From an uncultured delta proteobacterium (GTDB taxonomy: Bacteria; Desulfobacterota; Binatia; DP-6): DNA of 64,000 bases. The notes beneath the pieces are model-generated. The model was not told where the DNA came from, made no database searches, and saw nothing but the letters and a program-made list of their open reading frames with translations. The stretch covers positions 167,013 through 231,012 of the forward strand of contig CAWKPA010000001.1 of assembly GCA_963851365.1 (NCBI GenBank), given 5' to 3'. Shown here piece by piece: positions 44,121 to 63,131 of this stretch; within the stretch, counting starts at the first letter, position 1; each line of letters starts with the position of its first letter. The position numbers and the translations under genes are program-made.

Positions 44121-45557
44121 ATGGCCCAGACCGCACAGCTCCGGAAGATCGAGCATGCCGAGAACGAGGCGCAGCGCGTCTTCGCGCTCCAGCGCGCCGC
44201 ATATCTCGCCCACCCCTATCCGACGCTCGCGGAGCGCAAGGAGAATCTCAAGAAGCTGGACCGCCTGCTGGTGGACAACGCGCAGGCGATCGCCGAGGCG
44301 ATCAACGCCGACTTCGGGCACCGGGCGGTCGAAGAGACGCTCATGGCCGAGGTCTTCGGGACGGTCGACGGCATCCGCCACGCGGTGAAGCACGTCGCCA
44401 AATGGATGAAGCCCCAGAAACGCGCCGTGGCGATCACCTTCGCGGGCGGCTCGAACACGCTCATCCCGCAACCGAAGGGCGTGGTCGGCATCGTGTCGCC
44501 GTGGAACTACCCGCTCTTCCTGACGGCGGGACCGCTCACCAGCATCCTCGCAGCCGGCAACCGTGCCATGATCAAGATGGCGACCAACTCCCAGCACCTG
44601 GCCCGCCTGCTGGCGGAGAAGTTCGCCGCGGTCTTTCCGGAGGACACCGTCGCGATCCTGCCCGGTGTGCGCGCGCAGGACTTCTCCACCCTGCCCTTCG
44701 ACCACATCATCTTCACGGGCTCGGCCGACGCCGGCCGCACGGTGATGCGGTCCGCGGCCGAGAACCTGACGCCGGTGACGCTGGAGCTGGGCGGCAAGTC
44801 GCCCACCATCGTATGCGACGACTTCGACGTCGACGAGGCGGCGGCGCGCATCCTCTACGCCAAGTACCTGAACGCCGGTCAGACGTGCCTCGCGCCCGAC
44901 TACCTGCTGATCTCCGAGGCGAACCGCGATCGCTTCGTCGAGGCCGCGAAGCGCATCATGCCGGCGCGCTACCCCGACACGAACCAGCAGAGCTACACGT
45001 CGGTGATCGACGACAAGTCGTACCGGCGGCTGCGCGCCACGCTGGAGGACGCCCGCCAGAAGGGCGCCACGCTGGTGCCGCTGATTCCCGGCGCCGAGTT
45101 CAACGACCAGCTCCGCAAGATCCCGCCGCACCTGCTGCTCGACGTCACCGACGACATGACCATCATGCAGGAGGAGATCTTCGGGCCGCTCTTCCCGGTG
45201 AAGACCTACCGCAGCCTGGACGAGGCGATCGCCTATGTGAACGCCAAGGACCGGCCGCTCGGCTTCTACGTCTTCACCAACGACAAGGCGATTCAGGAAA
45301 CGGTGCTGTACGCCACCATTTCGGGCGGCGTCACCATCAACAACTGCGTGCTCCACGTGGCGCAGCACGACATGCCCTTCGGCGGGGTCGGCGCCAGCGG
45401 CATCGGCCACTACCACGGCTGGGAGGGCTTCCTCGAATTCACCAAGCTGCGCCCGGTGTTCCGGAACCCCCGCTTCTCCATGTTGAGCATGCTCTACCCA
45501 CCCTACACCGCGCGCACGCGTCAGCTGCTCGATCTGCTGATCAAGTACAAGCCGTAG
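44121..45557 (+). CDS. Aldehyde dehydrogenase (coniferyl-aldehyde dehydrogenase-like)
   Basis: SPWNYP, FTGS, LELGGKSP, NAGQTC, EEIFGP and PFGGVG; strong SD. Confidence 0.92.
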   Translation: MAQTAQLRKIEHAENEAQRVFALQRAAYLAHPYPTLAERKENLKKLDRLLVDNAQAIAEAINADFGHRAVEETLMAEVFGTVDGIRHAVKHVAKWMKPQKRAVAITFAGGSNTLIPQPKGVVGIVSPWNYPLFLTAGPLTSILAAGNRAMIKMATNSQHLARLLAEKFAAVFPEDTVAILPGVRAQDFSTLPFDHIIFTGSADAGRTVMRSAAENLTPVTLELGGKSPTIVCDDFDVDEAAARILYAKYLNAGQTCLAPDYLLISEANRDRFVEAAKRIMPARYPDTNQQSYTSVIDDKSYRRLRATLEDARQKGATLVPLIPGAEFNDQLRKIPPHLLLDVTDDMTIMQEEIFGPLFPVKTYRSLDEAIAYVNAKDRPLGFYVFTNDKAIQETVLYATISGGVTINNCVLHVAQHDMPFGGVGASGIGHYHGWEGFLEFTKLRPVFRNPRFSMLSMLYPPYTARTRQLLDLLIKYKP

Positions 45558-45634
45558 GGCGCAGGGGGAGTCGGGCGCGTTCCTCGCGTCAGGCGGCAGC
45601 CCCCGCCCGGGACCGTGCCGCGTGGCGGCGGGGA

Positions 45635-46810
45635 TCACGTACCGTGGGGGGGCGGCGACATCGCGCGGCGGCGGAACGTTCCGGCGACGAACCGGACCGG
45701 CCTGTAGAGGTAACAGACGGGGAGCAACCACGCGGTCTGGACCGGAAACGCACTGCGCAGGTACGTGGACGACGGCGCCACGACCCAGCGCGCAACCCGC
45801 GCCCGCCCGCGCCACGAAGCCGCCGACCGCCACAGGCTGGCGAGGTCTCCGCGCGGGCCGGCATGCGCGCCCCCGAGCGCCACTTCGTACGCGGCGCGGT
45901 GCGCGGCCGCCGCGCGGGCCTGCAGAGCCGCCAGCGCCGGCGGCGGAATGCGGGCGCCCAGATCGGCGAGATACGCCGCCAGCGTCGCGATCGGCAGCGC
46001 CAGCCGATACGCGTCGATACGGCCGACCACGTCGTCCCAGTCGAGATCGTGCCGCGCGACGAGGTGCCAGGCGTCCGCCACCCACCGGAGGTTCCGCCTG
46101 CTGGGACTGTACGAGGCGTGGCCGAGCACGTGCACCAGCGTGGCTTCGGGCGCCGGCGCCCGGGCGGAGGCCTCGTCGATGGCGATCCGGCAGGCATCGC
46201 GGCAGAACTCCTCGACCGTCGCGTCGTAGTAGCCGACCCCGAACGGCCTCACATGGAGCGCGATCTCGAGGCCGGAGCCGTGCCGGAGCACCGCGCCGAT
46301 GCGCGGCCCACGGAATCGCCCGATGGGGACGCACTCCGCGCGGGCGAGCGCCCGCACCGCGCGCGTCAGTTGGCGGGCCGGCACGAGCAGGTCCACGTCG
46401 TGACAGTGCCGCAGCTCCCAGGCGTCGTAGACCGTCGCCGCGAGCGCGGCCCCGCGCACCACGAGCGCCTCGACCCCGTCGCGGGCGAGGGCGGCGAGGA
46501 CTCCGGCGGCGATCTGGCGATACCGCGCCGCACGCAGTTCCTCGCGGAGCGCCGCGGCGCGCACGTACGACAGGACGTCGCCTCCCAGGTCGAGGTCGTT
46601 GCGAGTCACCGAGCGGGCGAGCAGTGGCAGGAGGGTGCGCGTCCCGGCCAGGTCGGCACACACGCCCGCGTCGGTGGACCCGCGGCGCGCGCGCCAGCGA
46701 CGCCAGCCGTCCCCGGCCGACGACCCGGTGTGCAGACATGCGGCGAGGAGCGCGCTCTCGTCGGGCGTCGGCAGCAGCACCGAGAAGGTGCCGCCGATGC
46801 CGCCGGTCAC
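45635..46810 (-). CDS. Nucleotidyltransferase family protein (NTP_transf_5-like)
   Basis: VVRGAALA..Y...R..HDVDLLV, EIALH and LRWVAD. Confidence 0.75.
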   Translation of the reverse strand: MTGGIGGTFSVLLPTPDESALLAACLHTGSSAGDGWRRWRARRGSTDAGVCADLAGTRTLLPLLARSVTRNDLDLGGDVLSYVRAAALREELRAARYRQIAAGVLAALARDGVEALVVRGAALAATVYDAWELRHCHDVDLLVPARQLTRAVRALARAECVPIGRFRGPRIGAVLRHGSGLEIALHVRPFGVGYYDATVEEFCRDACRIAIDEASARAPAPEATLVHVLGHASYSPSRRNLRWVADAWHLVARHDLDWDDVVGRIDAYRLALPIATLAAYLADLGARIPPPALAALQARAAAAHRAAYEVALGGAHAGPRGDLASLWRSAASWRGRARVARWVVAPSSTYLRSAFPVQTAWLLPVCYLYRPVRFVAGTFRRRAMSPPPHGT

Positions 46811-47502
46811 GTCGGCGTCCCCCGCCGTCGATCGAGCGCCGCCTTCACGACGTGCAGGAACTGGTCGCGGCTCGCTGACCGATGCCGGCGGCTGAAGTTG
46901 TCGTGGTGGAGCCGCCGGCGCGTGAGGACCTCCGGAACGAGGACGCCGGCCGCTCCGCGTTCCGAAGCCCGCAGGAACCAGTCCGCGGCGAACGCGAAGG
47001 GCAACGTCTCGTCGAAGTGGCCGATGTCCCCGAACGTGGCGCGCCGCACGAGCAGCGTCTGCACGACGTACCCCGGCACCGGTTGCATGACCGGTCGATC
47101 GGCATAGCGCTCGGCCTCCCGCTGCAGCTCCGGGATCCAGAAGTTCTGCACGAGACCCACGCAATGGCTCAGGGCGGGGTTCGCCGCGAACTCGGCAAGC
47201 TGGCGCCGCGTCTTGTCCGGCACCCACAGGTCGTCCTGCTCCAGGAATGCGACGAAGTCGCCGGTCGCGAGCGCCACACCCCGATTGCACGCCGCCGCCG
47301 GGCCGCGGTTCTCCTGCCGGTGGTATCGCACCGTCCCGTCGTACCGGCGAACGACCGCCGGCGAGTCGTCGGTGGAGCCGTCGTCGACGACGATCACCTC
47401 GAGCGGTCGATGCGTCTGCGCGAGGATGCTCCGGAGACTCTCGTCGAGGTACCGTGCGCCGTTGAAGCAGGGCACGATGCAGCTGACCAGTGCGCGCGAC
47501 AT
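46807..47502 (-). CDS. Glycosyltransferase family 2
   Basis: VSCIVPCFN, VVDDGSTD and N.G.A.ACN; atypical FLEQDD motif. Confidence 0.88.
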   Translation of the reverse strand: MSRALVSCIVPCFNGARYLDESLRSILAQTHRPLEVIVVDDGSTDDSPAVVRRYDGTVRYHRQENRGPAAACNRGVALATGDFVAFLEQDDLWVPDKTRRQLAEFAANPALSHCVGLVQNFWIPELQREAERYADRPVMQPVPGYVVQTLLVRRATFGDIGHFDETLPFAFAADWFLRASERGAAGVLVPEVLTRRRLHHDNFSRRHRSASRDQFLHVVKAALDRRRGTPT

Positions 47503-47504
47503 GA

Positions 47505-48749
47505 TCACAGCCCCAGGGCGTCGATCGCCTCCCGTACACGGGCGCCCACCGTGGACCAGGAGAATCGCTCGGTGACGATCGCTCTGGCATTCGCCATCAG
47601 CCGACTCGCCAGCACGGGGTCGCGGCGGATCGACAACACGGCATCGACGAACTCGCCCGGGGCGTGCGCCAGCAGCAGGTGGCGACCCCCCTCGACGCCC
47701 AGGCCCTCCGCCCCCTTGGCGGTGCTGACGACGGGCAGGCCGGCAGCGAACGCTTCCAGCACCTTGAGGTGCGTTCCGCCGCCGTGGAACAGCGGCACCA
47801 CCATCACGGTGGCCTCGGCGAAGTACGGCCGGACGTCCGGTACCGCTCCGGTCACGACGATGCGGACATCACGCGCCGCGGCGTCGAGCAGCGACCGGGG
47901 AGGCGTCGGACCGACGAGCACCAGGCGCGAGGTCTCCCGGGCGGCGACGAGGCGCGGAAACACCTCGTCGACGAGGAACTGCGCGGCGATCGCGTTCGGC
48001 AGATACGAGAAGATTCCGGGGAACAGCAGGGTGAGCGCGGCCTCGTCGGACGCGGGCGTGCGGCGCCCGGCGCACCCGTCGCCGTAGCTGTCCACCCGAA
48101 CGCCGTTCGGCACGACGAACGGCGGCGACCGCACGTCGTACAGCGCGCGCATGCGGTTCGCGTCATCCTCGCTGCAGACCCACACCTGGTCGGCCGCGCC
48201 GACCGCCCGCCGCTCGATCGCTTCGGTCCGCGCCGGCAGCACGTCACGGACGACGCGTCCCTCCAGGTCCTGGCGGGTGTTCGTTGCCGCGAGGGCCCGC
48301 ATCACGGCCGCTTCGACGTTGTGGCAGTCGAGGATCACCCGGCAGCCGGCCGCGCGCAGCACGTCCACGTAGCCGTGCAGCCAGAGCCCTTCGACGAGCG
48401 CCGCGTCCGGGCGGAACCGGTCGAGCAGATCCCCCAGCTCGCGCGCCGCCTGCTCGGAGAAGTGGAGATCCGACGGATGACCCGCGGGGTCCAACAGCCA
48501 CGCCCTGGCCGCCAGCGCGACGTCCCTCGGCGGGGGCGACGTCAGCGCCGGGTCCGTCGATGCCGTCCAGAACGCGAGCGGCAGATCCGGCGCCGCGTGC
48601 CGGCGGCCGTCGTTGGAGCACAGCCCGAACACGCCGACGCGCCCGCACGAGGTCAGCGCGTTGACGTGCTGCCAGGTGCGGAGGTCGCCCCCCTTCACCG
48701 TCGGGTACGGCAAGGACTCGGACAGCACGAGGATGCGCGGCCGGCTCAC
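47505..48749 (-). CDS. Glycosyltransferase family 4
   Basis: VVPNGV, YLPN and GGGTHLKVLEAFAAGLPVVST. Confidence 0.9.
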   Translation of the reverse strand: MSRPRILVLSESLPYPTVKGGDLRTWQHVNALTSCGRVGVFGLCSNDGRRHAAPDLPLAFWTASTDPALTSPPPRDVALAARAWLLDPAGHPSDLHFSEQAARELGDLLDRFRPDAALVEGLWLHGYVDVLRAAGCRVILDCHNVEAAVMRALAATNTRQDLEGRVVRDVLPARTEAIERRAVGAADQVWVCSEDDANRMRALYDVRSPPFVVPNGVRVDSYGDGCAGRRTPASDEAALTLLFPGIFSYLPNAIAAQFLVDEVFPRLVAARETSRLVLVGPTPPRSLLDAAARDVRIVVTGAVPDVRPYFAEATVMVVPLFHGGGTHLKVLEAFAAGLPVVSTAKGAEGLGVEGGRHLLLAHAPGEFVDAVLSIRRDPVLASRLMANARAIVTERFSWSTVGARVREAIDALGL

Positions 48750-49831
48750 GCAACGTTCCGGGACCCGGCGCTGGTCACGATGCGCTCGAGACTCGGGCGG
48801 ATGTCGCCGAGATCGGGACCGAGGAACAGCCAGTACGCCGGGACGCGCTCGACCAAGGCTGCGATCCGTTCCAGCGCCTCGCGCCCCGGCCGCGGCACCA
48901 CGGTGTGGAGCGTACTGGCGGCGAACTGCCGGAGCGCTTCGGAGGCGCGCGCCGGGCGGATCTCCGTCCGCTCGCTGCGGATGCGCAGCAGGACGACGGC
49001 GCGAATCGGCACCGTGGACCGGAGCAGGCCGGGGTGGATCTCGGAGAGGAACAGGATCGGCTTCTCCTCCTCGGGGAAGCTGTCCTCGACGGCGCGTGGT
49101 TGGATTTCGGGGAAGCGCTCCAGGTTCTTGCGGGCGATGCACGCGGTGTTGAAGATGCTGTGCCCGCGGAAGCTCCCATCGGGCCCCCGCTCGAGGCCGA
49201 CGAAATCGTCGCCGAGGTATTCCAGTCCCTGCGAGACGCTCGCCACGCACGTCGTCGACTTGCCGGTCCCGCTCTCGCCGGGGAGCAGGATTCCCGCGCC
49301 GCCGGCGGCGATCAGGCCGGCGTGCAGGATCTGCACGCCCCGGTCGTGGTACCAGACGGACAACAGGAGCACGAACGGCTTGCTGCATTCGCCGCGCGCG
49401 AGGTGCGACCCACTCCGCCGGCAGCCGATGATATGCTGCGCGTGGCGATCGAGCACCGTGACGGAGTCCTGGTAGTGGAAGCTCACATACCGGCCATCGG
49501 GCGATGCCGTGAGGGTGCCGTCGCACGCGACCCACTCCCGCCCGGCCCCGGTCGCCGTCGCTTCCGGCGGACACGGCACGCCGGTTTCGGTCTCGTCCCA
49601 GAGATCGATCGACAGGCCTTGCCCCGCGACACCCTCGATGCGCCGCGCGAGATGGGCGAACGCGCGATGCGTGCGCTCGCCCAGTCGGGCGCCGACCGCA
49701 CGCAGTCGCACGGGTCGCCCGGCGAACTCGTAGGTTTCCTCGCGCACCTCGCCGGGGCAGCGGCGCAGCGCTTCGCCGACCTCGCGTCGCATCCCCACGA
49801 CGTGAGCCGGCGTCTCGCACACGGGCGTCAC
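48746..49831 (-). CDS. HPr kinase-like kinase (lasso-peptide kinase-like)
   Basis: LHAG, Walker A GESGTGKSTT and YLGDDFV. Confidence 0.8.
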   Translation of the reverse strand: MTPVCETPAHVVGMRREVGEALRRCPGEVREETYEFAGRPVRLRAVGARLGERTHRAFAHLARRIEGVAGQGLSIDLWDETETGVPCPPEATATGAGREWVACDGTLTASPDGRYVSFHYQDSVTVLDRHAQHIIGCRRSGSHLARGECSKPFVLLLSVWYHDRGVQILHAGLIAAGGAGILLPGESGTGKSTTCVASVSQGLEYLGDDFVGLERGPDGSFRGHSIFNTACIARKNLERFPEIQPRAVEDSFPEEEKPILFLSEIHPGLLRSTVPIRAVVLLRIRSERTEIRPARASEALRQFAASTLHTVVPRPGREALERIAALVERVPAYWLFLGPDLGDIRPSLERIVTSAGSRNVA

Positions 49832-50271
49832 CGCGTCTTCCCCTCGTTGAACATCAGGTCGTCGATGCCCGGCGTCGGCGGATCGAGCGCGAGCAGATTC
49901 CCCATGTCGCGGTAGACGTTGAGCTTCGGCGTCTCGTACACCAGGGTCGCGCCCGCGGGCGCGGCGCCGGGCTGCCCTCCCGCGCCAGCGCCATCCGAGG
50001 CGACGACGAGGCCCTCCGCGAGCAGCTCCTGGACGAGCGCGCCGACGTCGTGCGCGACCTGGTCGGCGGATGCCCCATACCACCCGGCGATGGTGGCGGC
50101 GAGGGTGGGCAGGTCATGCTGCTGCTCGATCAGCTCCCACACCCGGGCGCCGACGTTGTCCATGGAATAGTACGTCCCGTCGGACAGGCGGATGATGATC
50201 AGCTCGCCGTCGATCACCTTGGCGGCGACGTCCGCCCCGTTCGGTGCGAAGCGCTCTCGCGGTTCAGACAT
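49828..50271 (-). CDS. PqqD/RRE domain protein with C-terminal YxxPxL leader-like tail
   Basis: RRE core DGELIII..GTYYSMDNVGARVWELI..DV..LV..L..EGLV, then a Gly/Ala linker and YETPKLNVYRDMGNLLALDPP. Confidence 0.85.
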   Translation of the reverse strand: MSEPRERFAPNGADVAAKVIDGELIIIRLSDGTYYSMDNVGARVWELIEQQHDLPTLAATIAGWYGASADQVAHDVGALVQELLAEGLVVASDGAGAGGQPGAAPAGATLVYETPKLNVYRDMGNLLALDPPTPGIDDLMFNEGKTR

Positions 50272-51388
50272 GAGGTTCCTCCATCAGACGATTGTGTTCG
50301 TAGAGCCGTTCGTACTCGTCCACGCAGCGATCCCAGGCGAACCGCTCGACGGCCCGGACGCGTGCCGCGCGTCCCATCCGATCGGCAGCCGCAGGATCCT
50401 CCAGAAGGCGTACGATGGCGTGCGCGAGCGCGGTGGGGTCTTCCCGGTCCACCAGTATGCCCGTCGTTCCATCCTCGACTACCTCGGCAAGGCCGCCGAC
50501 GCGCGCCGCGACGACCGGGCGCGCCATGAAGGCCGCTTCGAGCGCCACCAGGCCGAAGGGCTCGTCCCACCGCGACGGCACGACGACGAGAGCGGCCCGA
50601 TCGACGAGCGCCGGCACCGCATCGGGCGGGACGGCGCCCAGGAACTCGATCGCCCCGGACAGACCCAGGCTGCAGGCCAGGGCCTCCAGCTCGGCGCGGG
50701 CGGCGCCATCCCCGGCGAGCACGAGCCGGGCGTCCGGCACCCGGGGCAGCACCATGGCGAACGCCCGGACCGCGAGGTCGAATCCCTTGTCGGCCACCAG
50801 TCGCCCGAAGCCGAGGACCCGTGGCGCCGCGGTCGGCCGCTCGCTCGGGCGATGCGCCGGAACCGGCATACCGTAGTAGGTGACCGACGAGCGATCACGA
50901 AGCTCCGGCGCGACCCGTAGGAGGTCCGCATGGACGGCGTGCGAGTTGCAGTTCACCCAATCGGCGGAGCGGAGCGCGCGGCCGGCGAGGGTGTCGCCGC
51001 GCGCGGCATCGGCGGGCACGGGACTGTGCATCGTCAACAGGACCGACGCTGGGCGGCGGCCCAACGATGCCAGGTGGAAGAGCACGCTCGGTCCGAGTGT
51101 GTTGAGGTGGATCAGGTCCGGCGGGTGTTCGCGTTGGAGGCGCCAGACCGCCCGCAGCGCCTCCGCCATGCGATCGACGTCATTGGCGGCCAGGATGGCG
51201 TGGAACCAGTAGCGGCGCACGCGCACACCCTCATGGTCGAACTCGTCGGGCAGGCCCGGGCGATGGTGTCCGGCAACGACGGTGATCTCGTGCCCGCGGC
51301 GTGCGAGCGCCGGCAGCAGGCGTGCGGCGAAGACCTCGACGCCCCCAATGGAGGGGAGAAACCAATCCGTCCAGAAGAGGACGCGCAT
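50264..51388 (-). CDS. Glycosyltransferase family 4
   Basis: FLPSIGGVE, GRLVADKG, EPFGLVALEA and GGLAEVV. Confidence 0.92.
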   Translation of the reverse strand: MRVLFWTDWFLPSIGGVEVFAARLLPALARRGHEITVVAGHHRPGLPDEFDHEGVRVRRYWFHAILAANDVDRMAEALRAVWRLQREHPPDLIHLNTLGPSVLFHLASLGRRPASVLLTMHSPVPADAARGDTLAGRALRSADWVNCNSHAVHADLLRVAPELRDRSSVTYYGMPVPAHRPSERPTAAPRVLGFGRLVADKGFDLAVRAFAMVLPRVPDARLVLAGDGAARAELEALACSLGLSGAIEFLGAVPPDAVPALVDRAALVVVPSRWDEPFGLVALEAAFMARPVVAARVGGLAEVVEDGTTGILVDREDPTALAHAIVRLLEDPAAADRMGRAARVRAVERFAWDRCVDEYERLYEHNRLMEEPHV

Positions 51389-51542
51389 GGGGACCAGTAC
51401 CGCCTTTCTTCGGGGAAGACCAGAGATGCCGACGCGGCGCGTTGGGGCGATGGCCCGCGCCCGCGGCGGGACGCGAGGAGCCGCCCGCGTCCGGGGCTTG
51501 CGGGTCGGCATCGACATGGGGCAGCCTCGATCGCGCCGAGAT

Positions 51543-52886
51543 ATGCGGCATGTCTTGTTCATACACTATCATTTCCTGCCGGTGCACAACGTGGCCGTGA
51601 AGCGACTCGTGGGGTACGCCCGGGGGCTGCCTGCCTTCGGCTGGCGCACCTCGGTGCTCACCCGGGATTGGCGCGGAATCGAGGACGCGGACCCCCTGTG
51701 GGGTCTCAGCTGGGAGCCGGACATCGAGCGGGACCTCGGGTGCCCGATCTACCGGGTGCCGGCGCCGGCCCCCACCCGACCGCTGGCGCCCTCCTGGGAC
51801 CCGTCGCCGCCGCGGGGGGCCGGCCCGCGCGGCGTCCTGGCGCGGACAGGGCGTAAGCTGGCGGCGAAATCGCGCCGGCTTGCGCGCATGGCCGTTGGCG
51901 ACTACCCCGACGACCTGATCGGCTGGGCGCGCCCCGCGATCGACGCCGGCCTGGCGATCGCGCGCCGGGATCCGATCGACACGATCATGAGCTACTGCCC
52001 GCCCGAGACGAATCACGTCGTCGCCCGCCGGCTCGCCCGACGTCTCGACGTCCCCTGGGTGCCGTTCTTCGGTGATCTCTACGGGTTCCTCGAAGCGCCG
52101 CTGCCCGCGTATTCGATCGAGGGCGCCCTGCGACGGGCTTGGCACCGGTGGTGCCTGGCGCCGGCGGCCGCCTGCGTCGCCGTGTCGCCGTACATGGCCC
52201 GCTACCTCGCCCGAACCTATCGGAAGCCGACCACCGTCGTCCTCACTGGGTTCGACCCGGACCCGCCGCCCGTGGCGGCCGCCCCGGCGCCGGACCGCTT
52301 CGTGGTTTCCCACGTCGGCTCCGTGTACCCGGGGGATCAGCGGCCCGACATCCTCTTCGCCGGGCTCGACCGGCTCCTTGCGCAGCATCCCGAGATCGAG
52401 CCGCGACTCGAGGTCCGGCTGGTCGGCTCGAAATGCGACGCCCATCTCCGCGGCATGCTGGATGGCCGGCCCGCGGCGCGCGTGTGCACGATCCAGGCCA
52501 AGGTGCCGTCCGCGACCGCCGCCGTCATGGTGCATGCCAGCGACGCCCTGCTCGCGTTCACCTGCACGATGCACCGCGACCGGCACGGAACGCTCAGCTA
52601 CCCGACGAAGATCTTCGAGGCCTTCGGGGCGCGGCGCCCCATCCTGGCAATCCCCCCAGACGGCGACTGGGTCGACGAGCTGCTCGCGCGCACCGGCGGC
52701 GGCATCGGGGCGCGGGATCCGGACGAGGTCGCCGGCCGGCTCTGGGACTGGTTCTGCGAATGGCGACGCGACGGCCACCTGGCCTACCAGGGCAAGCCGG
52801 CGGAGATCGCCCGCTTCTCCCGCCGCGCGCAGGTCGAGCGCCTCGCGCGACTCTTCGAGACGGTCGCCGAGCGGCGGGCGCCATGA
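51543..52886 (+). CDS. Glycosyltransferase family 4-like
   Basis: YHFLP, SYCPP, GFD, HVGSVY and PTKIFEA..RPIL. Confidence 0.85.
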   Translation: MRHVLFIHYHFLPVHNVAVKRLVGYARGLPAFGWRTSVLTRDWRGIEDADPLWGLSWEPDIERDLGCPIYRVPAPAPTRPLAPSWDPSPPRGAGPRGVLARTGRKLAAKSRRLARMAVGDYPDDLIGWARPAIDAGLAIARRDPIDTIMSYCPPETNHVVARRLARRLDVPWVPFFGDLYGFLEAPLPAYSIEGALRRAWHRWCLAPAAACVAVSPYMARYLARTYRKPTTVVLTGFDPDPPPVAAAPAPDRFVVSHVGSVYPGDQRPDILFAGLDRLLAQHPEIEPRLEVRLVGSKCDAHLRGMLDGRPAARVCTIQAKVPSATAAVMVHASDALLAFTCTMHRDRHGTLSYPTKIFEAFGARRPILAIPPDGDWVDELLARTGGGIGARDPDEVAGRLWDWFCEWRRDGHLAYQGKPAEIARFSRRAQVERLARLFETVAERRAP

Positions 52887-53832
52887 CCGTCGAGACGCCG
52901 CTCGTCTGCATCATCGGCGCCCCGCGGAGCGGCACCACCTGGCTTCAGGCCATGCTCGGCGCCCATCCTCTGATCTGCACGGCGCAGGAGCTCAAGGTCT
53001 TCGACCTGTTCACCGGACCCTGGGAACGCTCCTGGCGCGCGCTGATCGACCTGCAGCGCGCGGCCGGCGGCGGGCGCCGTGGCCTGCGCGTCGTCTGGTC
53101 GGACGACGAGTTCTACGCGCTGCTCGCCGAGTTCCTCCAGCGGATCTACGCGCGCGTGCTGGCAAGCAAGCCGGGGGCGACGGTGGTGCTCGACAAATCG
53201 CCGGGCTACTCGAAGTATGCCGCGCACATTCAGCGCCTGGTGCCCTCGGTGAAATTCCTTCATGTGCTGCGCGACGGCCGGGACGTCGCGGTCTCCCTGC
53301 GAGCCGGCGCCCGGTCGTGGGCGCGGACCTGGGCCCCCAGTTCCATGGATGCCGCCGCCGCCCTGTGGCGATCGACCGTCCTCGACGCGCGCGAGGCGGG
53401 CCGCATCGCGCCCGGGCGCTATCGCGAGGTCCGCTACGACGAGCTGCTGCGGAACGGCCCGGCGGTGCTGCGCGATCTCTTCGGCTTCATCGGGGTGCCG
53501 GCAACGCCGGCGGAGGCGGCGGCCATCTGCGAGCGCCACACCATCGACCGGATGCGACGGGGCGCACACCCGTTCGACCTGCCCCAGGACTTCTTCCGGC
53601 GAGGACGAGAAGGTTCGTGGCGTCACGAGCTGACGCCGACGGAACGATACCTCGTCCACGACGCCGCCGGCGATCTCCTCGCCGAGCTCGGCTACGCGGA
53701 CGGGTCCTGGTGGGCCGAGCGGGGATACCAGCGCTGGCTGGTCCCCCTGCTCGCCGGCGCCCGGGCCCGCCGGCACGTCCGCGGACTCGTGCAGCGGGTC
53801 CGCGGCATCCCCCCCCCGGTCCCGGCACATGA
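52883..53832 (+). CDS. Sulfotransferase (the 3' end depends on a C9 tract; as written the frame runs to 54238)
   Basis: PAPS-binding GAPRSGTTW, DKSP, RDGRDVAVS, VRYDEL and FFRRG..GSW. Confidence 0.88.
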
Positions 53833-54965
53833 GCACCGATCCGGCACGCCACCTGCCCATGTTGCGCGCGCTCGTGCGAGGCGACGTGAGCGCGCTGCGG
53901 GAGACGCTGGCCGATCCGGCGACCGACGTCGCAGGCTTCCTGCGCTTCGCGCATCGACACCAGCTCGGCTCCTACGCCTATTGGTCGCTGCAGCGGCTCG
54001 GCCTCGCCCGCTCGCTCCCTCCGCCGCTGCTGGCCGCCACGAAGGCCTCGGCGTTCGTCGAGCGCGCCCGGAGCGAGCGTCTCGCGCTGCTGCTGGACGA
54101 GCTGGGCGAGTTGTTCGACGCCGCGGGGGCGCGCGCGCTGTTCATCAAAGGGCCCCTCTTCGCACAGCGCTTCTACGGCAGCCTCGAGGCCCGCGGCTTC
54201 TCGGACCTGGACGTGCTGATTCCCGCGCCCACCGATAGCGACCGGATCGAGCGGCTATTGCGCGGCGCGGGCTTCGAGCCGGCCTTTCGCGTTCTCGGGA
54301 CGCGACGGCTGACGCGATACTTCGCGCACCATTTCGAATACCGGCGCGACACCCTGCCCCTCGACGTGCATTGGGCGCTGCAGCGGCACTTCACGTTCGC
54401 GATCGACTATCCCCGCCTCTGGGCCACGTCGGTTCGGGTCGAGCTGGGAGGGCGCACGTTCGGGGCGGCGTCGGACGAGTACGAGCTGGTCCTGCAGATC
54501 CTGGGGGTCCTCACGGACCTGCAGGTGGGCAAGCTCTCGCTGCGCACCGTCGTCGACGTGTTTCGCGTGCTCGAGACGGTCGAAGGGGAGATGGACTGGC
54601 ACGATTTCCTCGCCTGGCGGGCACGCGAGCGCATCCTGCGTCCGGCGCTGTTCGTCCTCGCTCTCACCCTGGACGTGCTCGATTGCCGCGACGGCTTCCC
54701 GACCCTGTGCGAGGCGTTGGACGCGGGGCGCCATCGCATTCCGTCCACCCAGGCCGCCCGCCGCGCCGTGTTGGAAAGCCGCCCGCTGGATCTCGAGCAG
54801 AAACTGCTCGCGCTCCGCCTCTACGAGGCGCCGCTCCCGACGTCGCTGGCCTGGTGGCTCCTGTCGCTCCCGTTCCGGATCGCGGCCTACGGGATCACCC
54901 GCCCGCTGCGCGTGGCGCCCGCCGCCACCAGGACCCGCTCCATCCAGCCGGGGACGACGCGGTGA
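53829..54965 (+). CDS. Nucleotidyltransferase family protein (NTP_transf_5-like)
   Basis: FIKGP...Y....R..SDLDVL and LDVHW. Confidence 0.82.
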   Translation: MSTDPARHLPMLRALVRGDVSALRETLADPATDVAGFLRFAHRHQLGSYAYWSLQRLGLARSLPPPLLAATKASAFVERARSERLALLLDELGELFDAAGARALFIKGPLFAQRFYGSLEARGFSDLDVLIPAPTDSDRIERLLRGAGFEPAFRVLGTRRLTRYFAHHFEYRRDTLPLDVHWALQRHFTFAIDYPRLWATSVRVELGGRTFGAASDEYELVLQILGVLTDLQVGKLSLRTVVDVFRVLETVEGEMDWHDFLAWRARERILRPALFVLALTLDVLDCRDGFPTLCEALDAGRHRIPSTQAARRAVLESRPLDLEQKLLALRLYEAPLPTSLAWWLLSLPFRIAAYGITRPLRVAPAATRTRSIQPGTTR

Positions 54966-55025
54966 TGCGCCAGCGTGGGTTTCCCATCGCGGCGGCAACC
55001 TGCTACCGGGGCCGCGTCCGTCCAT

Positions 55026-55121
55026 GGAGAAGGAAGAGGCCCGGTGGCCTCACCGGTCTTCAAAACCGCGTTGTCCCGCCTGGCGCGGGATGGAAGGTTC
55101 GACTCCTTCCCTTCTCCGCCA
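55026..55121 (+). tRNA. selC: tRNA-Sec (anticodon TCA)
   Basis: 8-bp acceptor GGAGAAGG/CCTTCTCC; 6-bp D stem GAGGCC/GGCCTC with 4-nt loop; anticodon loop CT-TCA-AA; long variable arm; 5-bp T stem with TTCGACT; G discriminator and CCA. Confidence 0.95.
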
Positions 55122-55130
55122 TCTCCGCCA
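55113..55130 (+). repeat. Tandem duplication of the tRNA-Sec 3' end (TCTCCGCCA x2)
   Basis: Direct repeat at 55113-55121 and 55122-55130. Confidence 0.8.
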
Positions 55131-55143
55131 TGATGGCGGCCGC

Positions 55144-56439
55144 ATGGCCCGCACCCGCATCGTCGCCACCATCGGTCCCGCCACCGACGACGAGCCGCGC
55201 CTCGCCGCGCTCCTCGACGCGGGCGTCGACGTCGTCCGGCTGAACTTCTCCCACGGCAGCCACGAGGAGCACGGACGGCGCATCGCCGGCGTGCGGCGGC
55301 TCGCGGCGGGACGCCCGATCGCCATCCTGCAGGACCTGGGCGGCCCGAAGCTGCGGCTCGACGCCCCCGTGCGGGCGGCGCCGGGCGACATCGTCGCATT
55401 GCCGCTCCCCGCCACGGTCCTCCCCGGCGATCCCGTGCTGCTCGCCGACGGCCTCATGCAACTCGAGGTGCTCGACGCCCACCACAGCCGCGCCGTCACC
55501 GGCGGCGACATCCCCGCCGGCAAGGGCATCAACCTGCCGTCGTCGCGGCTCGACCTGCCGGCATTCACCGACAAGGACCGCCGCGACCTGGCGTTCGGCG
55601 TCGCCCAGGGCGTCGACCTGGTGGCGCTGTCGTTCGTCGAGCATCCGGCGGACCTCGCCGAGGCGAAGGCCAGCGGCGTTCCGGTGCTGGCGAAGATCGA
55701 ACGGGCCCGCGCCCTCGACCACCTCGACGCGCTGGTCGAGGCCGCCGACGGCATCCTGGTGGCGCGCGGCGACCTCGGCGTCGAGATCCCGATCGAGCGT
55801 GTGCCGACCGTCCAGAAGCGCTTGGTGCGGCTCGCCAACCACGCCGCCAAGCCGGTGATCGTGGCGACACAGATGCTCCGCTCGATGGTGACGAGCCCGC
55901 TCCCGACGCGCGCGGAAGCCACCGACGTCGCCAACGCGGTCCTCGACGGCGCCGACGCGGTGATGTTGAGCGAGGAGACCGCCATCGGCCAGTTCCCGGT
56001 GGAGGCGGTCGGGGTGATGCAGCGCATCCTGGGGGCGGCGGAGGCCGAGCTGCCGCCGTGGGGGCACGAGCCGGACACCGGCATCTCGGAGAACGTCGCG
56101 CGCGTCGCGTGCACCCTCGCCGAGCGGCTTGGCGCCGCGGCCCTCGTGGTGGCCACGCGCTCCGGGTTCTCGGCCCGCAACGTCGCACGCCACCGGCCGC
56201 GCATCCCCATCGTCGCGCTCACGCCCGACGAATCGACCCGGCGCCGCCTGTCGCTGGTGTGGGGCGTGACGGCGCTGGCGTCGCCGTGGTTCGACGACAC
56301 CGATGCGTTGCTGGCCCGCTTTCGCGATGCCGTCCGGCCGACGGGCATGGTGCCGGCCGGCGCGCCGGTGGTGGTCACCGCCGGTTGGCCCTTCGCCGAT
56401 GCGGGGACGACGAACCTGCTCCACGTGACGGCGATGTAG
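55144..56439 (+). CDS. pyk: Pyruvate kinase
   Basis: IVATIGPA, RLNFSHG, AKIE, ARGDLGVE, ATQML and DAVMLSEET. Confidence 0.95.
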   Translation: MARTRIVATIGPATDDEPRLAALLDAGVDVVRLNFSHGSHEEHGRRIAGVRRLAAGRPIAILQDLGGPKLRLDAPVRAAPGDIVALPLPATVLPGDPVLLADGLMQLEVLDAHHSRAVTGGDIPAGKGINLPSSRLDLPAFTDKDRRDLAFGVAQGVDLVALSFVEHPADLAEAKASGVPVLAKIERARALDHLDALVEAADGILVARGDLGVEIPIERVPTVQKRLVRLANHAAKPVIVATQMLRSMVTSPLPTRAEATDVANAVLDGADAVMLSEETAIGQFPVEAVGVMQRILGAAEAELPPWGHEPDTGISENVARVACTLAERLGAAALVVATRSGFSARNVARHRPRIPIVALTPDESTRRRLSLVWGVTALASPWFDDTDALLARFRDAVRPTGMVPAGAPVVVTAGWPFADAGTTNLLHVTAM

Positions 56440-57155: not shown

Positions 57156-58103
57156 TCAAACTGGACCCACCAGAATCGAGAAGCGTGCGACGAAGCACGT
57201 ACCGGGCGGCACCAGGCGCAACGCCGACCCGCCCTGAACCAGTGCGTTGCCGGGCGCGGTCATCGGCTCGAGACAGACGAACCCGCCGCCGGCCGGCGCG
57301 TAGACCTGCGCGAACGGATATCCCTCCTCGAACACCAGTTCGATCCGGCGGCCGCCACCTGCCAGCGCGGCGCGGGCGGGAGCGACGAAGAGGTCGTCGA
57401 AGGTGCGGCTGCCGAGCGGCCCGGCCGGGATCGCCACCGCCTCGCGCGTGCCGGTCGGCAGCAAGCGAGCGTCGAGGACGAGGCGCTCGCGCACCGGCAG
57501 GTCGAGGTGCCAGTCCGCACGCGGCACATCGGGCAGTCGGAGGTAGGGATGAAAGCCGAACGCGATCGGCACCGGCACGTCCCCGGTCGCGAGCAAGGCG
57601 GTGTCCACGGTGAGCGCGCCGTTCCCGAGCGTCACGGCGAGCTCGAGCCGGTGGGGGAAGGGGAAGGCCGCGAGCAGCGCCGGGTCGGGCGAGAAGTCGA
57701 GGCACGTCGCGAGACGCGCCCCGGCGCCGTCGGCGGTCGCCGCGAGGACCTCGAAACGCGAGCGCCCCAGGAGCAGACCGTGGATCGGCAGGCCGGCCGG
57801 ATCGAGATGCAGGACGCCCGACGCCGGGTCGAGGGTCACGGTGCGGCCGCCCGCCGTGTAGCCCAAGCCGGCGAGGCGATTCGCCCAGGGGTGCAGCAGG
57901 GGTATCCCCAGGGTGGAGCCGCGGCGCGCGTACGTCGCCACCCCGCCCCGCGCATCGAGCAGTTCGGCGCCCCGATGGCGCAGCGAGGCGCCGACCATGC
58001 CGGCGCCGACGACGAAGGTCGCGTCGAGCCCGCCGTCCGGCGACGTCAGCGTGTACGCGGGGAAGCCCTCGACTACGGTCTGGGCGATGCGCGCGCGCGT
58101 CAT
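57156..58103 (-). CDS. Aldose 1-epimerase family protein
   Basis: LHPWANR, IHG, GFHPY and VCLEP. Confidence 0.88.
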   Translation of the reverse strand: MTRARIAQTVVEGFPAYTLTSPDGGLDATFVVGAGMVGASLRHRGAELLDARGGVATYARRGSTLGIPLLHPWANRLAGLGYTAGGRTVTLDPASGVLHLDPAGLPIHGLLLGRSRFEVLAATADGAGARLATCLDFSPDPALLAAFPFPHRLELAVTLGNGALTVDTALLATGDVPVPIAFGFHPYLRLPDVPRADWHLDLPVRERLVLDARLLPTGTREAVAIPAGPLGSRTFDDLFVAPARAALAGGGRRIELVFEEGYPFAQVYAPAGGGFVCLEPMTAPGNALVQGGSALRLVPPGTCFVARFSILVGPV

Positions 58104-59392
58104 GCCGGACGCCGCCCTCGGCCGATCGCCGTCGCGACGGCGTCGAGCTCCGCGAGCCAGCGGTCGACGGCGCGCTCCGCAAAATCCCCCAGGAGGGCGG
58201 CGCGCGCCGGCCGCTCGTGCCGCGCCGCCTCGCGCTCCACGTCGGCGACGTCGCGCCAGAGCGCCGCCTCGAAGGCATCCCAGCGCGCCCGCACCGCCGG
58301 CCCGTGGACGGCGACGTCCCGCTCCACCAGGTCCAGGAGCGCGCGGGTGCGCCACCACGGGCTGCGGGCGTCCGGCTCGGCGCCCCCCAGCCCGAGCCGC
58401 GGCGGCACCGGCGCGTCGAGCCACAGGGGGAGAAAGGCCCCGACACACGGACTGCCGAGCCCCACGGCGACGGCGGCGACCGCATCGGACGCCGCGGGCA
58501 ACGGGGCCACGATCGACGCCGTCGTGTTGTCGAGCGGATCGGCGTGCATGCAGATCGAGAAGTAGTACGGATCGTCGAACGGGCGAGGCCGGTGCACCGT
58601 CCCCGCATCGTAATGGTCGCGCAACACGGTGCGCAGCACCGCCGGGGTGAGCTGCCCGCGCCCTTCGGCGAGGCAGACCGCCGCCCGGCGCCGGCGTTCC
58701 ACGCACTGGTTGGGCGGGACGCCGGTCTCGTCGGCATACGCGGCGGCGAAATCCACCCGGCCGGCGTCCGCGGGCCACCAGCCCTGCGCCACGGCGAACG
58801 CGGTCAGATCGGCGGACCCGCGCGTCCACGCCGTCCCGAGCGCCAACCCGTTCGAGACGTTCGCGACGTCGGCCACCGGCCACGCCGCCCAGTGGCGCGC
58901 CGAGGTCTCGAGCACCCAGGCCGCGTGCGGATCGGCGACGATGAACGCGTTGTGGTACGGCCAATCGAGGTGCACGTGACCGCTGCCGCCCTGCCCGTGC
59001 GCCTCGATCAGCGACGTCATCACCTCGAGCGCCTGGTCCGCCGTGCGGGCGCGCTCGAGCCCGAGCCGCACCAGGTCCATGCCGGTCAGTCCGACGGCGG
59101 GCAGCGATTCCCTGGCGAACACGGTCTCGTTGCCGATCGCCACGCGGTGCTCGTTGACACCGTGCTCGAACCCCCAGAGCCAGTACGGCTGCGACCCGAT
59201 CACCGCATGGGTCTGGCTGGGTTGCGGCAGATCGACGTACTGGCAGCGGACACGGGCGCCCGCCGCATGCCGCGCCGCCGGCCACTGCACGATGCGCTGG
59301 CACTCGCGCGGTGGCCGATCGCTGTTCTTCGCGAACAGCGTGACGCCGTCGCGCGTCGCGGGCGCGAGGGCGACCATCGTGTCGCAACCCAT
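58100..59392 (-). CDS. C69 family peptidase / secernin-like Ntn hydrolase
   Basis: MGCDTMVA (N-terminal Cys), FAKNSDR, WGFEHGVNE, GMDLVRLGLER and SICMH. Confidence 0.88.
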   Translation of the reverse strand: MGCDTMVALAPATRDGVTLFAKNSDRPPRECQRIVQWPAARHAAGARVRCQYVDLPQPSQTHAVIGSQPYWLWGFEHGVNEHRVAIGNETVFARESLPAVGLTGMDLVRLGLERARTADQALEVMTSLIEAHGQGGSGHVHLDWPYHNAFIVADPHAAWVLETSARHWAAWPVADVANVSNGLALGTAWTRGSADLTAFAVAQGWWPADAGRVDFAAAYADETGVPPNQCVERRRRAAVCLAEGRGQLTPAVLRTVLRDHYDAGTVHRPRPFDDPYYFSICMHADPLDNTTASIVAPLPAASDAVAAVAVGLGSPCVGAFLPLWLDAPVPPRLGLGGAEPDARSPWWRTRALLDLVERDVAVHGPAVRARWDAFEAALWRDVADVEREAARHERPARAALLGDFAERAVDRWLAELDAVATAIGRGRRPA

Positions 59393-59514
59393 GACCGCGA
59401 CCCTCGCGTGCATGCACGGTCTGGTCAAGCGGCGGCCGCGCGCAGACTCGTCATCCCGGGCGCTTCCGGGTATACCTCGCGGCCCATGCGCCAACGCTGC
59501 CGGAGGCCCGCCGC

Positions 59515-59598
59515 GTGAGCCTGCGTCTGATTCTCGCCGTCTGGGCTGCCGCGGTCTACGCCATCTACTGGTGGGGCTATCTCGGAGGCGGGTCGTGA
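59515..59598 (+). CDS. Unannotated 27-aa single-TM peptide
   Basis: MSLRLILAVWAAAVYAIYWWGYLGGGS; GGAGG 8 nt upstream; GTGA overlap with the next gene. Confidence 0.55.
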   Translation: MSLRLILAVWAAAVYAIYWWGYLGGGS

Positions 59599-61481: not shown

Positions 61482-62811
61482 GCCCCGCAAGCGCCGGCAC
61501 TTCGCGCTCGACTCGCTGCAGGTCCTGAGCGGTCAGGGCGCCATGATGGCGCTCGGCTTCGTGAACGGCGTCATCACGGCGCGCTGGCTCGGTCCGACCG
61601 CGCGCGGGCAGTTCCAGCTCCTCACGCTCCTGCCGATCCTGCTCTCGAACTTCGTCAAGCTCGGCATCCCGCAGGCGAGCGTCTACTACATGCGCCGCCG
61701 GGGGGCCTCCGCGTCGGACGTCGCCTCCAACTCGATCTGGATCGGACTCGTGATGGGATGCGCCGCGATCGTGGCGAGCTGGTGGGGCCGCGAGTGGCTG
61801 CTGACCCGCTTCCTGAAAGCGACCCCTCCGGAGCTGCTGCTGCCGTCACTTGCGCTGATCCCCTTCGTGCTCCTGCAGTTCTACCTGCTCGGCATCGCGC
61901 AGGCGCAGGAGCGCTTCCGCGAGTACAACATCCGCCAGGTGGTGCCGAACCTGCTCAGCCTGGTCGGCCTCGCCATCACCCTGATCCTGCTGCGCATGGG
62001 CCTGGTCGGCGCCGTCCTCGTGCAGGTGGTCATTCAGGTGTTCATGACGCTCTGGATGATCTGGCGCGTCCACCGCGAGGCGCGGTTGCACCTGCGCTGG
62101 AACCGCGAACTCGCCCGCGGCATGCTCGGCTTCGGCAGCAAGTCCTACGTCCAGACGCTGGCGGCGACGCTGCACCTCCGGATCGACCAGTTCATCTGCG
62201 CGTGGTTCCTGGCCCCGGCCGACGTCGGGCTCTACGCCATCGCAGTCAACTTCGCCACGCTGCTGATGAAGATTCCCGAGGCCACGGGCACGGTGATGTT
62301 CCCGCGACTGGCCGGCTCAGAGGACCGGCAGGCGCACGCCGCGACCACCCGCGTCTGCCGGTCGACGCTCTTCATCCTGCTGCTCGGCGTGCTGACCTTC
62401 GCCGTCGCGGGCCCGATCCTGATCCCCCTGGTCTACGGCGACGCGTTCCGGGGTGCCGTGCGACCGCTCCTCATTCTGCTGCCCAGCGTCCTGTTGATGG
62501 CGCTCTATCAACTGCTGACGCGCAACTTCACCAGCCGCGGCAAGCAGCAGGTGAACATCCTCGCAGCCGGCGTCGCGCTCGTACTCAACGTCGGGCTGAA
62601 CGTGGTCCTGATCCCGCGCTTCGGCATCGCCGGCGCCGCGGCCGCCAATGGACTCTCCTACGGCACCGCGGCGCTCACGCTGCTGGTCGCGTTCGTCCGC
62701 GACTCCGGCCATTCCGTGACCGAAACGCTGATCGTCCGGCCGGCCGAGATCGCGGAGATGGCCGGCGCGGCCCGCAAGGTGGCGGATCGGCTCCAGCGCC
62801 GCGGCGCCTGA
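61474..62811 (+). CDS. Oligosaccharide flippase (Wzx/MOP family)
   Basis: TARWLGP..RG, RIDQF, VGLYAIA and NVGLNVVLIPRFGIAGAA. Confidence 0.88.
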   Translation: MAEPRKRRHFALDSLQVLSGQGAMMALGFVNGVITARWLGPTARGQFQLLTLLPILLSNFVKLGIPQASVYYMRRRGASASDVASNSIWIGLVMGCAAIVASWWGREWLLTRFLKATPPELLLPSLALIPFVLLQFYLLGIAQAQERFREYNIRQVVPNLLSLVGLAITLILLRMGLVGAVLVQVVIQVFMTLWMIWRVHREARLHLRWNRELARGMLGFGSKSYVQTLAATLHLRIDQFICAWFLAPADVGLYAIAVNFATLLMKIPEATGTVMFPRLAGSEDRQAHAATTRVCRSTLFILLLGVLTFAVAGPILIPLVYGDAFRGAVRPLLILLPSVLLMALYQLLTRNFTSRGKQQVNILAAGVALVLNVGLNVVLIPRFGIAGAAAANGLSYGTAALTLLVAFVRDSGHSVTETLIVRPAEIAEMAGAARKVADRLQRRGA

Positions 62812-62918
62812 ACGCCGTCATCCGCCGGAGGCTGGCCGACCGCGCGGCTCACCCGCGGCAATGCTCGATCGGTGCTGGCGCGCGCGCGCCGAGTTGCTAT
62901 AAGCAACGGGCACTCGCC

Positions 62919-63113: not shown

Positions 63114-63131
63114 ACCACGAGGGCGACGGCC

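Follow-up and report, generated by a model that had tools for sequence, protein, structure and literature searches.

The 64,000-nucleotide stretch of DNA analyzed here (the window; positions 167,013 to 231,012 of contig CAWKPA010000001.1, assembly GCA_963851365.1) comes from an uncultured delta proteobacterium and holds a nine-gene cassette centered on a small PqqD-type protein, a recognition element (RRE) of the kind found in pathways for peptides that are made on the ribosome and modified after translation (RiPPs). The nine genes occupy exactly positions 45635-54965 without spare room, as judged from a frame plot of G+C at the third codon position (GC3) and start mapping. Because the G+C content of the window is about 72%, plain lists of open reading frames (ORFs) are swamped by spurious frames, and the frame plot replaced GC3-threshold ORF filters, which are too crude at this composition. 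The frame plot, start mapping and Pfam and NCBIfam searches agree with the gene content and coordinates given in a preliminary description of this DNA, which had proposed two divergent, coupled operons. The minus-strand operon encodes a GT4 glycosyltransferase (GT4a), the RRE protein, an HPrK-like P-loop kinase, a second GT4 (GT4b), a GT2 glycosyltransferase and an NTP_transf_5 nucleotidyltransferase-fold protein (A); the plus-strand operon encodes a GT4-like protein (c), a sulfotransferase and a second NTP_transf_5 protein (B). The domain assignments hold in profile searches, with E-values of 1.8e-13 for the RRE protein (PF05402), 2e-29 and 1e-38 for NTP_transf_5 A and B (PF14907), 3e-30 for the sulfotransferase (PF13469) and 1.7e-6 for the kinase (PF07475), the last being below the curated cut-off and covering the P-loop region alone.

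The RRE protein (147 aa; 49828-50271, minus strand) is the one PqqD copy in the 5.15-Mb genome, and it has a leader-type tail built in. The PqqD/RRE domain proper, delimited by PF05402, an AlphaFold2 (AF2) model and fold matching, spans residues 23-89 (50005-50205, minus strand), ending near residue 89 of 147. Its fold is closest to that of the leader-bound lasso B1 protein TbiB1 (5v1v; Foldseek E = 3e-5, TM-score 0.88 on the target), the next structural match being another lasso B1. The family profile matches TbiB1 at 8.9e-19, PbaB1 at 3.2e-14 and LppB (9x8z), from the linear polyphosphorylated peptide (LPP) clusters of Bacillota, at 2.4e-9; among NCBIfam models, the lasso_PqqD models alone are matched, both below cut-off. 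The domain is thus of the lasso-B1/LPP type.

A variable Gly/Ala/Pro linker (residues ~92-110) follows the domain and leads into a tail with the consensus Y112-x-x-P115-x-L117-N-[IV]-[YFH]120-x-D122-M123-[GA]-[DN]-L-L-A128-L-D130-P-P-x-P134-G, after which the protein closes with a short variable C-terminal end. Family alignments and the AF2 model place the conserved tail, YxxPxL and then DM[GA][DN]LLALDPPxPG, at residues 112-135 (49867-49938, minus strand). Its conservation was measured in alignments of 19 and 53 proteins and in a wider set of 270. M123, A128, D130 and P134 are present in all 53 proteins of the second alignment, Y112 in 52, and P115 and L117 in 51 each; the tail pattern fits 255 of the 270 stored family proteins. 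According to the accessible parts of two reports, [Y/W]xxPx[L/V/I/F/A] is the motif bound in the hydrophobic cleft of discrete lasso and LPP RREs, and the residues after this leader motif extend the RRE sheet (PMC13381572; PMC10368454). The AF2 model of the RRE protein, made with the family alignment, has an overall predicted local distance difference test score (pLDDT) of 82.6; residues 111-120 reach about 95 and include a strand at 118-120, while residues 121-147 score low. Judged from these confidence values rather than by superposition, YxxPxL most likely docks in cis into the groove of its own RRE. Asp75, which is invariant across the RRE family, is the probable counterpart of the RRE aspartate that hydrogen-bonds the leader tyrosine in LppB and actinobacterial B1 proteins, as described in the accessible text of the LPP report (PMC13381572).

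The preliminary description had noted that no separate precursor gene is visible, and this extends beyond the window. The overlapping junctions of the cluster offer no intergenic room for one, the full tail motif is found once in the whole genome, and strict and loose patterns for the LPP-type precursor motif gave no match in the six frames of the genome. With a leader-type motif fused to the RRE, the precursor that is missing most likely forms part of the RRE protein, its own tail being the simplest candidate. When short proteins were searched for tails that stand alone, 5.8 billion proteins yielded one 47-aa fragment. No longer fused forms were found by word index; the fusions described below came from the profile search alone. 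RREs that carry a fused leader within kinase and glycosyltransferase clusters were not found described in the main texts of PMC open-access articles or bioRxiv.

This architecture defines a large family. The RRE protein has 339 homologous matches at E <= 1e-3, nearly all of 141-151 aa and aligned end to end, and a profile search of 1.84 billion representatives places 233 clusters (50% identity) in the family at E <= 1e-30. Scanning one genome per species gave 53 related loci carrying about 13 phylum-level labels, as counted from record titles. To tally the partners of the RRE protein we searched these loci by tblastn with the nine window proteins; many of the 53 are truncated, and 29 are well flanked, having 5 kb or more to either side. 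The GT2 is the RRE protein's most constant partner, found in 29 of 29 well-flanked loci (49 of 53 overall) and often in two to four copies. The kinase follows with 25 of 29 (43 of 53), then NTP_transf_5 with 24 of 29 (37 of 53) and GT4 with 22 of 29 (34 of 53). The sulfotransferase was found in 3 of 29 well-flanked loci and 4 of 53 overall, and the sulfotransferase arm is therefore accessory. Co-occurrence is conserved for GT2, kinase, NTP_transf_5 and GT4 and not for the sulfotransferase; the preliminary description was silent on the C-terminal tail, on the constancy of the GT2 and on the accessory status of the sulfotransferase arm. Four well-flanked loci lack the kinase; three of their genomes encode one, in two cases just past the end of the locus as extracted, and the fourth genome does not.

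The full nine-gene arrangement recurs in two loci (L009 and L010) at 60-77% protein identity and is nearly complete in a third (L011). Orthologs of NTP_transf_5 B are present in these three loci at 56-68% identity, and orthologs of GT4-like c are confined to the closest relatives, L009-L012. The arrangement was found in 4 of 24 genomes of the window's family and in none of the four other genomes of its own genus, a patchiness that fits an accessory, laterally moving island. Recurrent neighbors across the 53 loci are further NTP_transf_5 genes (13 loci), NAD-epimerases (11), ABC exporters (8) and an AsnB-type amidotransferase (6), with radical-SAM/SPASM proteins (5), GlcNAc 2-epimerase (5) and Wzx-like flippases (4) being rarer. 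In the six neighboring Asn synthases a GATase domain is strongly matched (PF13537, 5.7e-44 for the representative), and no cluster of peptidases, transglutaminase-like peptidases or lasso cyclases emerged among the neighbors of the 53 loci.

Two further observations concern individual loci. L014 carries three RRE genes (2595-3140, 8069-8581 and 10616-11167) of identical protein sequence with a GT2 after each, which is either a real amplification of the RRE-GT2 pair or an assembly artefact. In tblastn searches, orthologs from metagenome-assembled genomes (MAGs) show in-frame stops or frameshifts in L018 (kinase, 10507-11589), L038 (kinase, 6642-7790), L056 and L059; the kinase stops in L018 and L038 are true gene ends, and for L056 and L059 indel errors of long-read sequencing seem to be the cause.

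The kinase (361 aa; 48746-49831, minus strand) lies directly downstream of the RRE gene. The HPrK core is kept in 26 orthologs, with H170, the GxSGxGKST P-loop (G185/G190/K191) and D209 of the LGDD motif invariant, and HPrK/P structures are the sole matches of the kinase profile in the PDB. Against the HprK-related kinase models TIGR04352 and TIGR04355 it scores 32.1 bits (E = 6e-8, with the P-loop stretch alone matched) and 23 bits, each against a cut-off of 200. Prediction of the RRE-kinase complex, with a 26-row alignment for each partner, gave a median score of 0.61, where the best of three controls reached 0.00. Of 80 solved complexes, 58 attain the score mark used, as do 2 of 110 mismatched pairs; with our own alignments as input, these figures are a rough guide here. 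At least 78% of contacts are common to the runs, and partner pLDDT is at least 74. In the predicted interface, the C-terminal helices of the kinase (residues 295-328) meet the RRE's invariant beta-face (residues 16-38), and a second kinase surface (residues 98-116, 129-130 and 158-163) is contacted by residues 120, 122 and 131-141 of the RRE tail. These models suggest that the RRE protein and the kinase form a complex through this predicted interface.

The pairing also occurs within single chains. Two metagenomic proteins of ~785 aa (P0246 and P0270) are natural fusions of three RRE modules, with leader-like tails, to a full-length kinase at the C-terminus; this kinase part and the window kinase have 29% identity over residues 27-340 (E = 3e-34). 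Tandem relatives with two or three RRE modules, all metagenomic, comprise these two and P0122, P0123, P0128 and P0207; their tails, in these distant forms, have the pattern ...D[LM]xxL[LF]x[LIM]DPVH[DE]. Of all elements of the tail, the Asp-Pro pair thus persists most, being kept even in these DPVH[DE] endings.

The best solved relative along the whole length of the GT2 (233 aa; 46807-47508, minus strand; PF00535, 4e-32) is the C-terminal GT2 domain of the chondroitin synthase K4CP (2z87, residues 374-599, E = 4e-23). GT4b (414 aa; 47505-48749, minus strand; PF13692, 3e-22) matches TIGR03087, a glycosyltransferase of PEP-CTERM/XrtA systems, at 2.7e-44, below the cut-off. GT4a, the first gene of the minus operon (50264-51433; PF00534, 2e-39, and PF13439, 5e-20), encodes ~374-389 aa depending on whether it starts at 51433 or, alternatively, at 51388. 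In GT4-like c (456 aa; 51516-52886, plus strand; PF13579, 4e-10, and PF13439, 8e-9) the N-terminal GT4 domain alone is recognized, and there is no NCBIfam match. NTP_transf_5 A (391 aa; 45635-46810) is the last gene of the minus operon; its AF2 model (pLDDT 90.5) has weak structural matches to MenT1, LnuA, ANT(2'')-Ia and FKRP, all minimal Pol-beta nucleotidyltransferase folds, which include O-nucleotidyltransferases and, in FKRP, a phosphotransferase. NTP_transf_5 B (378 aa; 53829-54965, plus strand) has no sequence match in the PDB. A third NTP_transf_5 paralog, 30% identical to B, lies elsewhere in the genome (contig C5:152034-152975) beside an MGT/MurG-like glycosyltransferase, and neither an RRE gene nor a kinase gene lies nearby.

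Start/stop overlaps of 4-8 bp join the genes throughout the minus operon, both operons are translationally coupled, and the divergent region between the two operons (51434-51515) is the sole untranslated gap inside the cluster. A sigma-70 promoter scan of 45300-55300 returned no promoters, and an intrinsic terminator scan of the same interval returned three terminator-like sites, not above shuffled controls. The sulfotransferase, of the 3'-phosphoadenosine-5'-phosphosulfate (PAPS) type (~315 aa; 52883 to ~53828, plus strand; also PF00685, 3e-17), has an ambiguous 3' end. Its frame as sequenced extends to 54238, overlapping NTP_transf_5 B by ~410 bases; an alternative frame stops at 53830-53832 and would give an ATGA start/stop overlap like the other junctions. 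A run of nine C (53809-53817) lies 12 bases upstream of the NTP_transf_5 B ATG, and a one-base change in its length, by sequencing error or real slippage, would explain the read-on.

The cassette is flanked by unrelated housekeeping genes, encoding TetR, O-methyltransferase and aldehyde dehydrogenase proteins on one side and pyruvate kinase and MsrA on the other. Beyond pyruvate kinase and MsrA, 2-8 kb downstream of the cassette, lies a second glycan-related group (57156-63998), with genes for an aldose-epimerase-like protein, a PMT_2-type GT-C membrane glycosyltransferase (59043-61481), a Wzx/MurJ-like flippase that overlaps the GT-C gene (61474-62811) and a phosphogluco/phosphomannomutase (PGM/PMM; from 63132).

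The absence of a cyclase and of a B2 peptidase, which the preliminary description had reported for the window, extends to the whole assembly (5.15 Mb, 13 contigs, 94.6% complete). No Asn-synthetase-like macrolactam cyclase is present in the cluster and none was recognized genome-wide. The single strong Asn_synthase match in the genome (contig C13:288653-289786) scores 8.9e-95 against TIGR03108 and gives a partial match, at 1e-17 only, to the lasso cyclase model NF033535. It lies in a glycosyltransferase-rich locus (C13:282000-294500), where the ORF as called is 386 aa and comprises the synthase domain alone. By sequence it looks like an XrtA/PEP-CTERM-type exopolysaccharide (EPS) amidotransferase rather than a lasso cyclase. 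For PF13471, the family of the B2 peptidase, no match was found genome-wide (54 first-look candidates were scored). A signal peptidase I of the archaeal, LppS type (TIGR02228) had no match in the genome, in a search whose control was positive in 8 of 14 control genomes. MsbA-like ABC exporters (PF00664) are absent from the window, the nearest on the same contig being ~135 kb away.

The closest known system is the LPP family, the lppA-K-B-S-D-N clusters of Bacillota that combine an RRE, an HPrK-like kinase and an NTP transferase without a cyclase (Popov et al., Nat Commun 2026; PMC13381572). The family was described in May 2026 and, in the accessible text of that report, its final product is unknown. 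LPP precursors are separate and carry YxxPxVLxHQxIxFETxxS, the clusters lie inside polysaccharide loci, and the kinase LppK polyphosphorylates Ser3 of the precursor; LppS, a signal peptidase I of archaeal type, serves as the guide gene, and LppD is an MsbA-like exporter (PMC13381572). As far as the same text describes them, LPP clusters have in common with our cassette the RRE, HPrK-like kinase and NTP transferase core, the lack of a lasso cyclase, the surrounding glycosyltransferase or polysaccharide genes and an RRE ligand beginning YxxPx[V/L]. By motif count, the Ser3 phosphorylated by LppK lies at +18 from the anchoring tyrosine, the register of the invariant Asp130 here; at +15 from the tail tyrosine, where lasso leaders have Thr(-2), the cassette protein has Leu127. 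There are also differences. The motif sits on the C-terminus of the RRE protein here, whereas in LPP it heads a separate precursor of 35-200 aa (PMC13381572). The acceptor register holds Asp and not Ser, with no universally conserved hydroxyl. A signal peptidase I-like enzyme (TIGR02228) was not found in the genome, an MsbA-like exporter is missing from the window and there is no separate precursor; in addition, the GT2 is a constant partner here and the family occurs in MAGs of many non-Bacillota phyla.

The kinship to paeninodin/pseudomycoidin tailoring that had been pointed out for the RRE, HPrK-like kinase and NTP_transf_5 content is borne out. In the accessible text on these lasso clusters, the HPrK homologs PadeK and PsmK phosphorylate a serine of the linear, leader-bearing precursor, and sulfotransferase genes are noted (PMC8498205); PsmN, an enzyme of NTP_transf_5 type, attaches one or two hexoses to the pseudomycoidin phosphate (PMC8498205; PMC13381572). 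An HPrK-homologous kinase, an NTP_transf_5-type enzyme and sulfotransferase genes are thus common to both. Our cassette differs in having no cyclase, B2 peptidase, precursor or D transporter, and where the paeninodin/pseudomycoidin kinases are described as targeting a C-terminal serine, the C-termini of the cassette family are variable and often lack a hydroxyl. With lasso B1 RREs (TbiB1-TbiA, 5v1v/5v1u; TfuB1, 6jx3; PbaB1, 9x90) the RRE protein has in common the fold and profile match and the YxxPxL ligand; in those systems, however, the ligand is a separate peptide that is passed to a B2 protease and a cyclase, whereas here it is tethered and the predicted partner is a kinase. The systems of HprK-related kinases A and B (TIGR04352/TIGR04355) likewise set an HPrK-like kinase beside a PqqD protein in non-lasso contexts, and we take these kinases to be linked to a dedicated PqqD partner family; we found no paper naming them in the PMC open-access or bioRxiv literature. 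The cassette is a relative of the lasso/LPP tailoring module in which the RRE carries its own ligand, here in a nine-gene version that bears a sulfotransferase. The earlier suggestion of a new RiPP-like class has in part been pre-empted by the cyclase-free LPP clusters, as described in the accessible text (PMC13381572). The alternative that was offered with it, an RRE protein serving as carrier or scaffold of a glycan-building set, fits the fused leader-type motif better than a new RiPP class does.

The reading that we lean toward, giving it a little short of an even chance, is a protein-primed pathway in which the RRE tail is the built-in substrate and is modified by the kinase, NTP_transf_5 proteins, glycosyltransferases and sulfotransferase. 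YxxPxL would be held in the RRE groove in cis, after the floppy linker, and the DM[GA][DN]LLALDPPxP segment would be presented to the complexed kinase, which would phosphorylate the tail as protein primer. An NTP_transf_5 protein would then add a sugar or a nucleotide-activated group to the tail phosphate, in the manner of PsmN on pseudomycoidin. A glycan on the tail would be lengthened by the GT2 and GT4 enzymes and, in the nine-gene version, sulfated by the sulfotransferase. With no peptidase or exporter in the cluster, the product would stay on the 15-kDa protein unless unlinked genes process it. All of these chemical steps, and the identity of the acceptor atom, are ones that we infer.

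Several observations weigh against a protein-primed pathway. The most serious is that no hydroxyl is universal in the tail: Ser, Thr and Tyr are absent at positions 120/121 in 30 of 255 proteins, from residue 122 to the end in 21 of 245 single-module proteins, and from residue 120 on in 3 of the 245. A fixed Ser/Thr/Tyr phospho-acceptor of the LPP or lasso kind is consequently not a family feature, and either the acceptor is unusual or the RRE protein is an unmodified scaffold. The P-loop of the kinase (185-193) is not among the confident contacts of the complex model, and LppN was inactive in the sole experimental test of an LPP cluster that the accessible text describes (PMC13381572). The RRE gene is coupled to its neighbors on both sides, which a stoichiometric subunit fits equally well, and the neighbors at other loci (epimerases, Wzx-like flippases, AsnB-type amidotransferase) are typical polysaccharide genes. 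All 53 related loci also come from MAGs.

Two candidate acceptors were considered and set aside. Position 133 is Thr in the window, and a role for Thr133 as universal phospho- or glyco-acceptor was rejected on finding Met, Leu, Val or Ala there in many relatives. Position 120 is Tyr, Phe or His and looks like a structural aromatic; a compensating acceptor pair of Tyr120 and Ser/Thr121 accounted for 6 of 7 non-Tyr proteins in the 53-locus set but for 7 of 37 in the wider set, and was dropped.

An alternative that we consider possible, if somewhat doubtful, is an RRE protein that is never modified. Here the fused leader would do no more than fill and stabilize the groove, and the invariant segment and beta-face would dock the kinase, NTP_transf_5 and GT2 into a complex whose substrate is not a protein but, for instance, a sugar, a polysaccharide or a lipid-linked oligosaccharide. 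Phosphodiester-linked or activated sugars might be made by the kinase and nucleotidyltransferase, for example, with the glycosyltransferases and sulfotransferase finishing an exopolysaccharide. The missing universal hydroxyl and the enzyme-subunit-like coupling of the RRE gene count in favor of such a scaffold, and the invariant beta-face (16-38) is the very surface predicted to contact the kinase. LppB is insoluble without leader in the accessible account (PMC13381572), which would give a reason for fusing the leader to the RRE. The NAD-epimerases (11 loci), GlcNAc 2-epimerases (5), GATase-bearing AsnB-type amidotransferases (6), flippases (4) and ABC exporters (8) that recur around the family, the GT-C, Wzx-like flippase and PGM/PMM genes 4-8 kb downstream in the window and the resemblance of the GT2 to glycosaminoglycan synthase domains also speak for a scaffold. 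Against an unmodified scaffold, the characterized relatives of the kinase all act on RRE-presented peptides, so far as the accessible texts show (PMC8498205, PMC13381572), and the invariant segment extends well past what filling the groove needs, into the place at which the LPP leader is presumed to meet the modifying enzymes. Across loci, the presence of exporter and flippase genes is moreover inconsistent (8 of 53 and 4 of 53), and by Pfam and NCBIfam the nine genes include no initiating phosphoglycosyl transferase or polymerase. A substrate in trans is a different matter. The RRE might serve an unlinked, unrecognized peptide or secreted protein, the fused tail acting as an autoinhibitory or competing pseudo-leader; YxxPxL by itself is so short that a 5-Mb genome could hold other carriers, and FusB1-type RREs are described as promiscuous (PMC13381572, accessible text). 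We nevertheless hold this unlikely in view of the lack of intergenic room in the cluster, the single genomic occurrence of the full tail motif, the failure to find an LPP-type precursor motif and the confident AF2 placement of the cis ligand, and also of the family-wide fusion, which has essentially no split forms and argues that the cis ligand is functional. That the cassette is the tailoring half of a lasso pathway, with cyclase, B2 peptidase and precursor elsewhere in the genome, is highly improbable. RRE, HPrK-like kinase, NTP_transf_5 and sulfotransferase genes do occur in the Firmicutes lasso clusters of the accessible account (PMC8498205), and ~5% of the genome is unseen in a 94.6%-complete assembly; against this stand the lack of any PF13471 match, the EPS-type character of the sole strong Asn_synthase, the GATase domains of the six Asn synthases at the related loci and the absence of a transglutaminase-like peptidase cluster there.

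Within the protein-primed pathway, one specific version deserves mention, although it is distinctly improbable, more so than a separate precursor. The acceptor would be the invariant Asp130-Pro131 site, and the RRE protein would be joined through Asp130 to a glycosaminoglycan-like glycan, sulfated in the nine-gene version. HPrK-like RiPP kinases phosphorylate phosphate, an anionic oxygen, and could on that ground phosphorylate an Asp carboxylate; the kinase would then activate Asp130 as an acyl phosphate or, alternatively, the intrinsically labile Asp-Pro bond would be cleaved. The glycan would be built by the chondroitin-synthase-like GT2, the GT4 enzymes and the sulfotransferase. In eukaryotes, Asp-Pro cleavage is coupled to esterification onto chondroitin. 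If the Asp130 version were true, the cassette would give bacteria a RiPP-derived equivalent of the ester cross-links between proteins and glycosaminoglycans.

RREs are usually regarded as adaptors for a separate precursor, and RiPP genome mining searches for that precursor. What we describe is a large family of adaptors that have their ligand fused on and are tied to a kinase and to glycan-building enzymes; the absence of a conserved hydroxyl makes the chemistry of the cassette a puzzle. If the RRE protein is a scaffold, the family would clearly exemplify the reuse of hardware for RiPP recognition in organizing carbohydrate enzymes. If the tail is the acceptor, the cassette would represent a protein-primed phospho-glycan pathway, sulfated here, that has grown from lasso/LPP machinery, and it would also hint at the nature of the final products of the LPP clusters.

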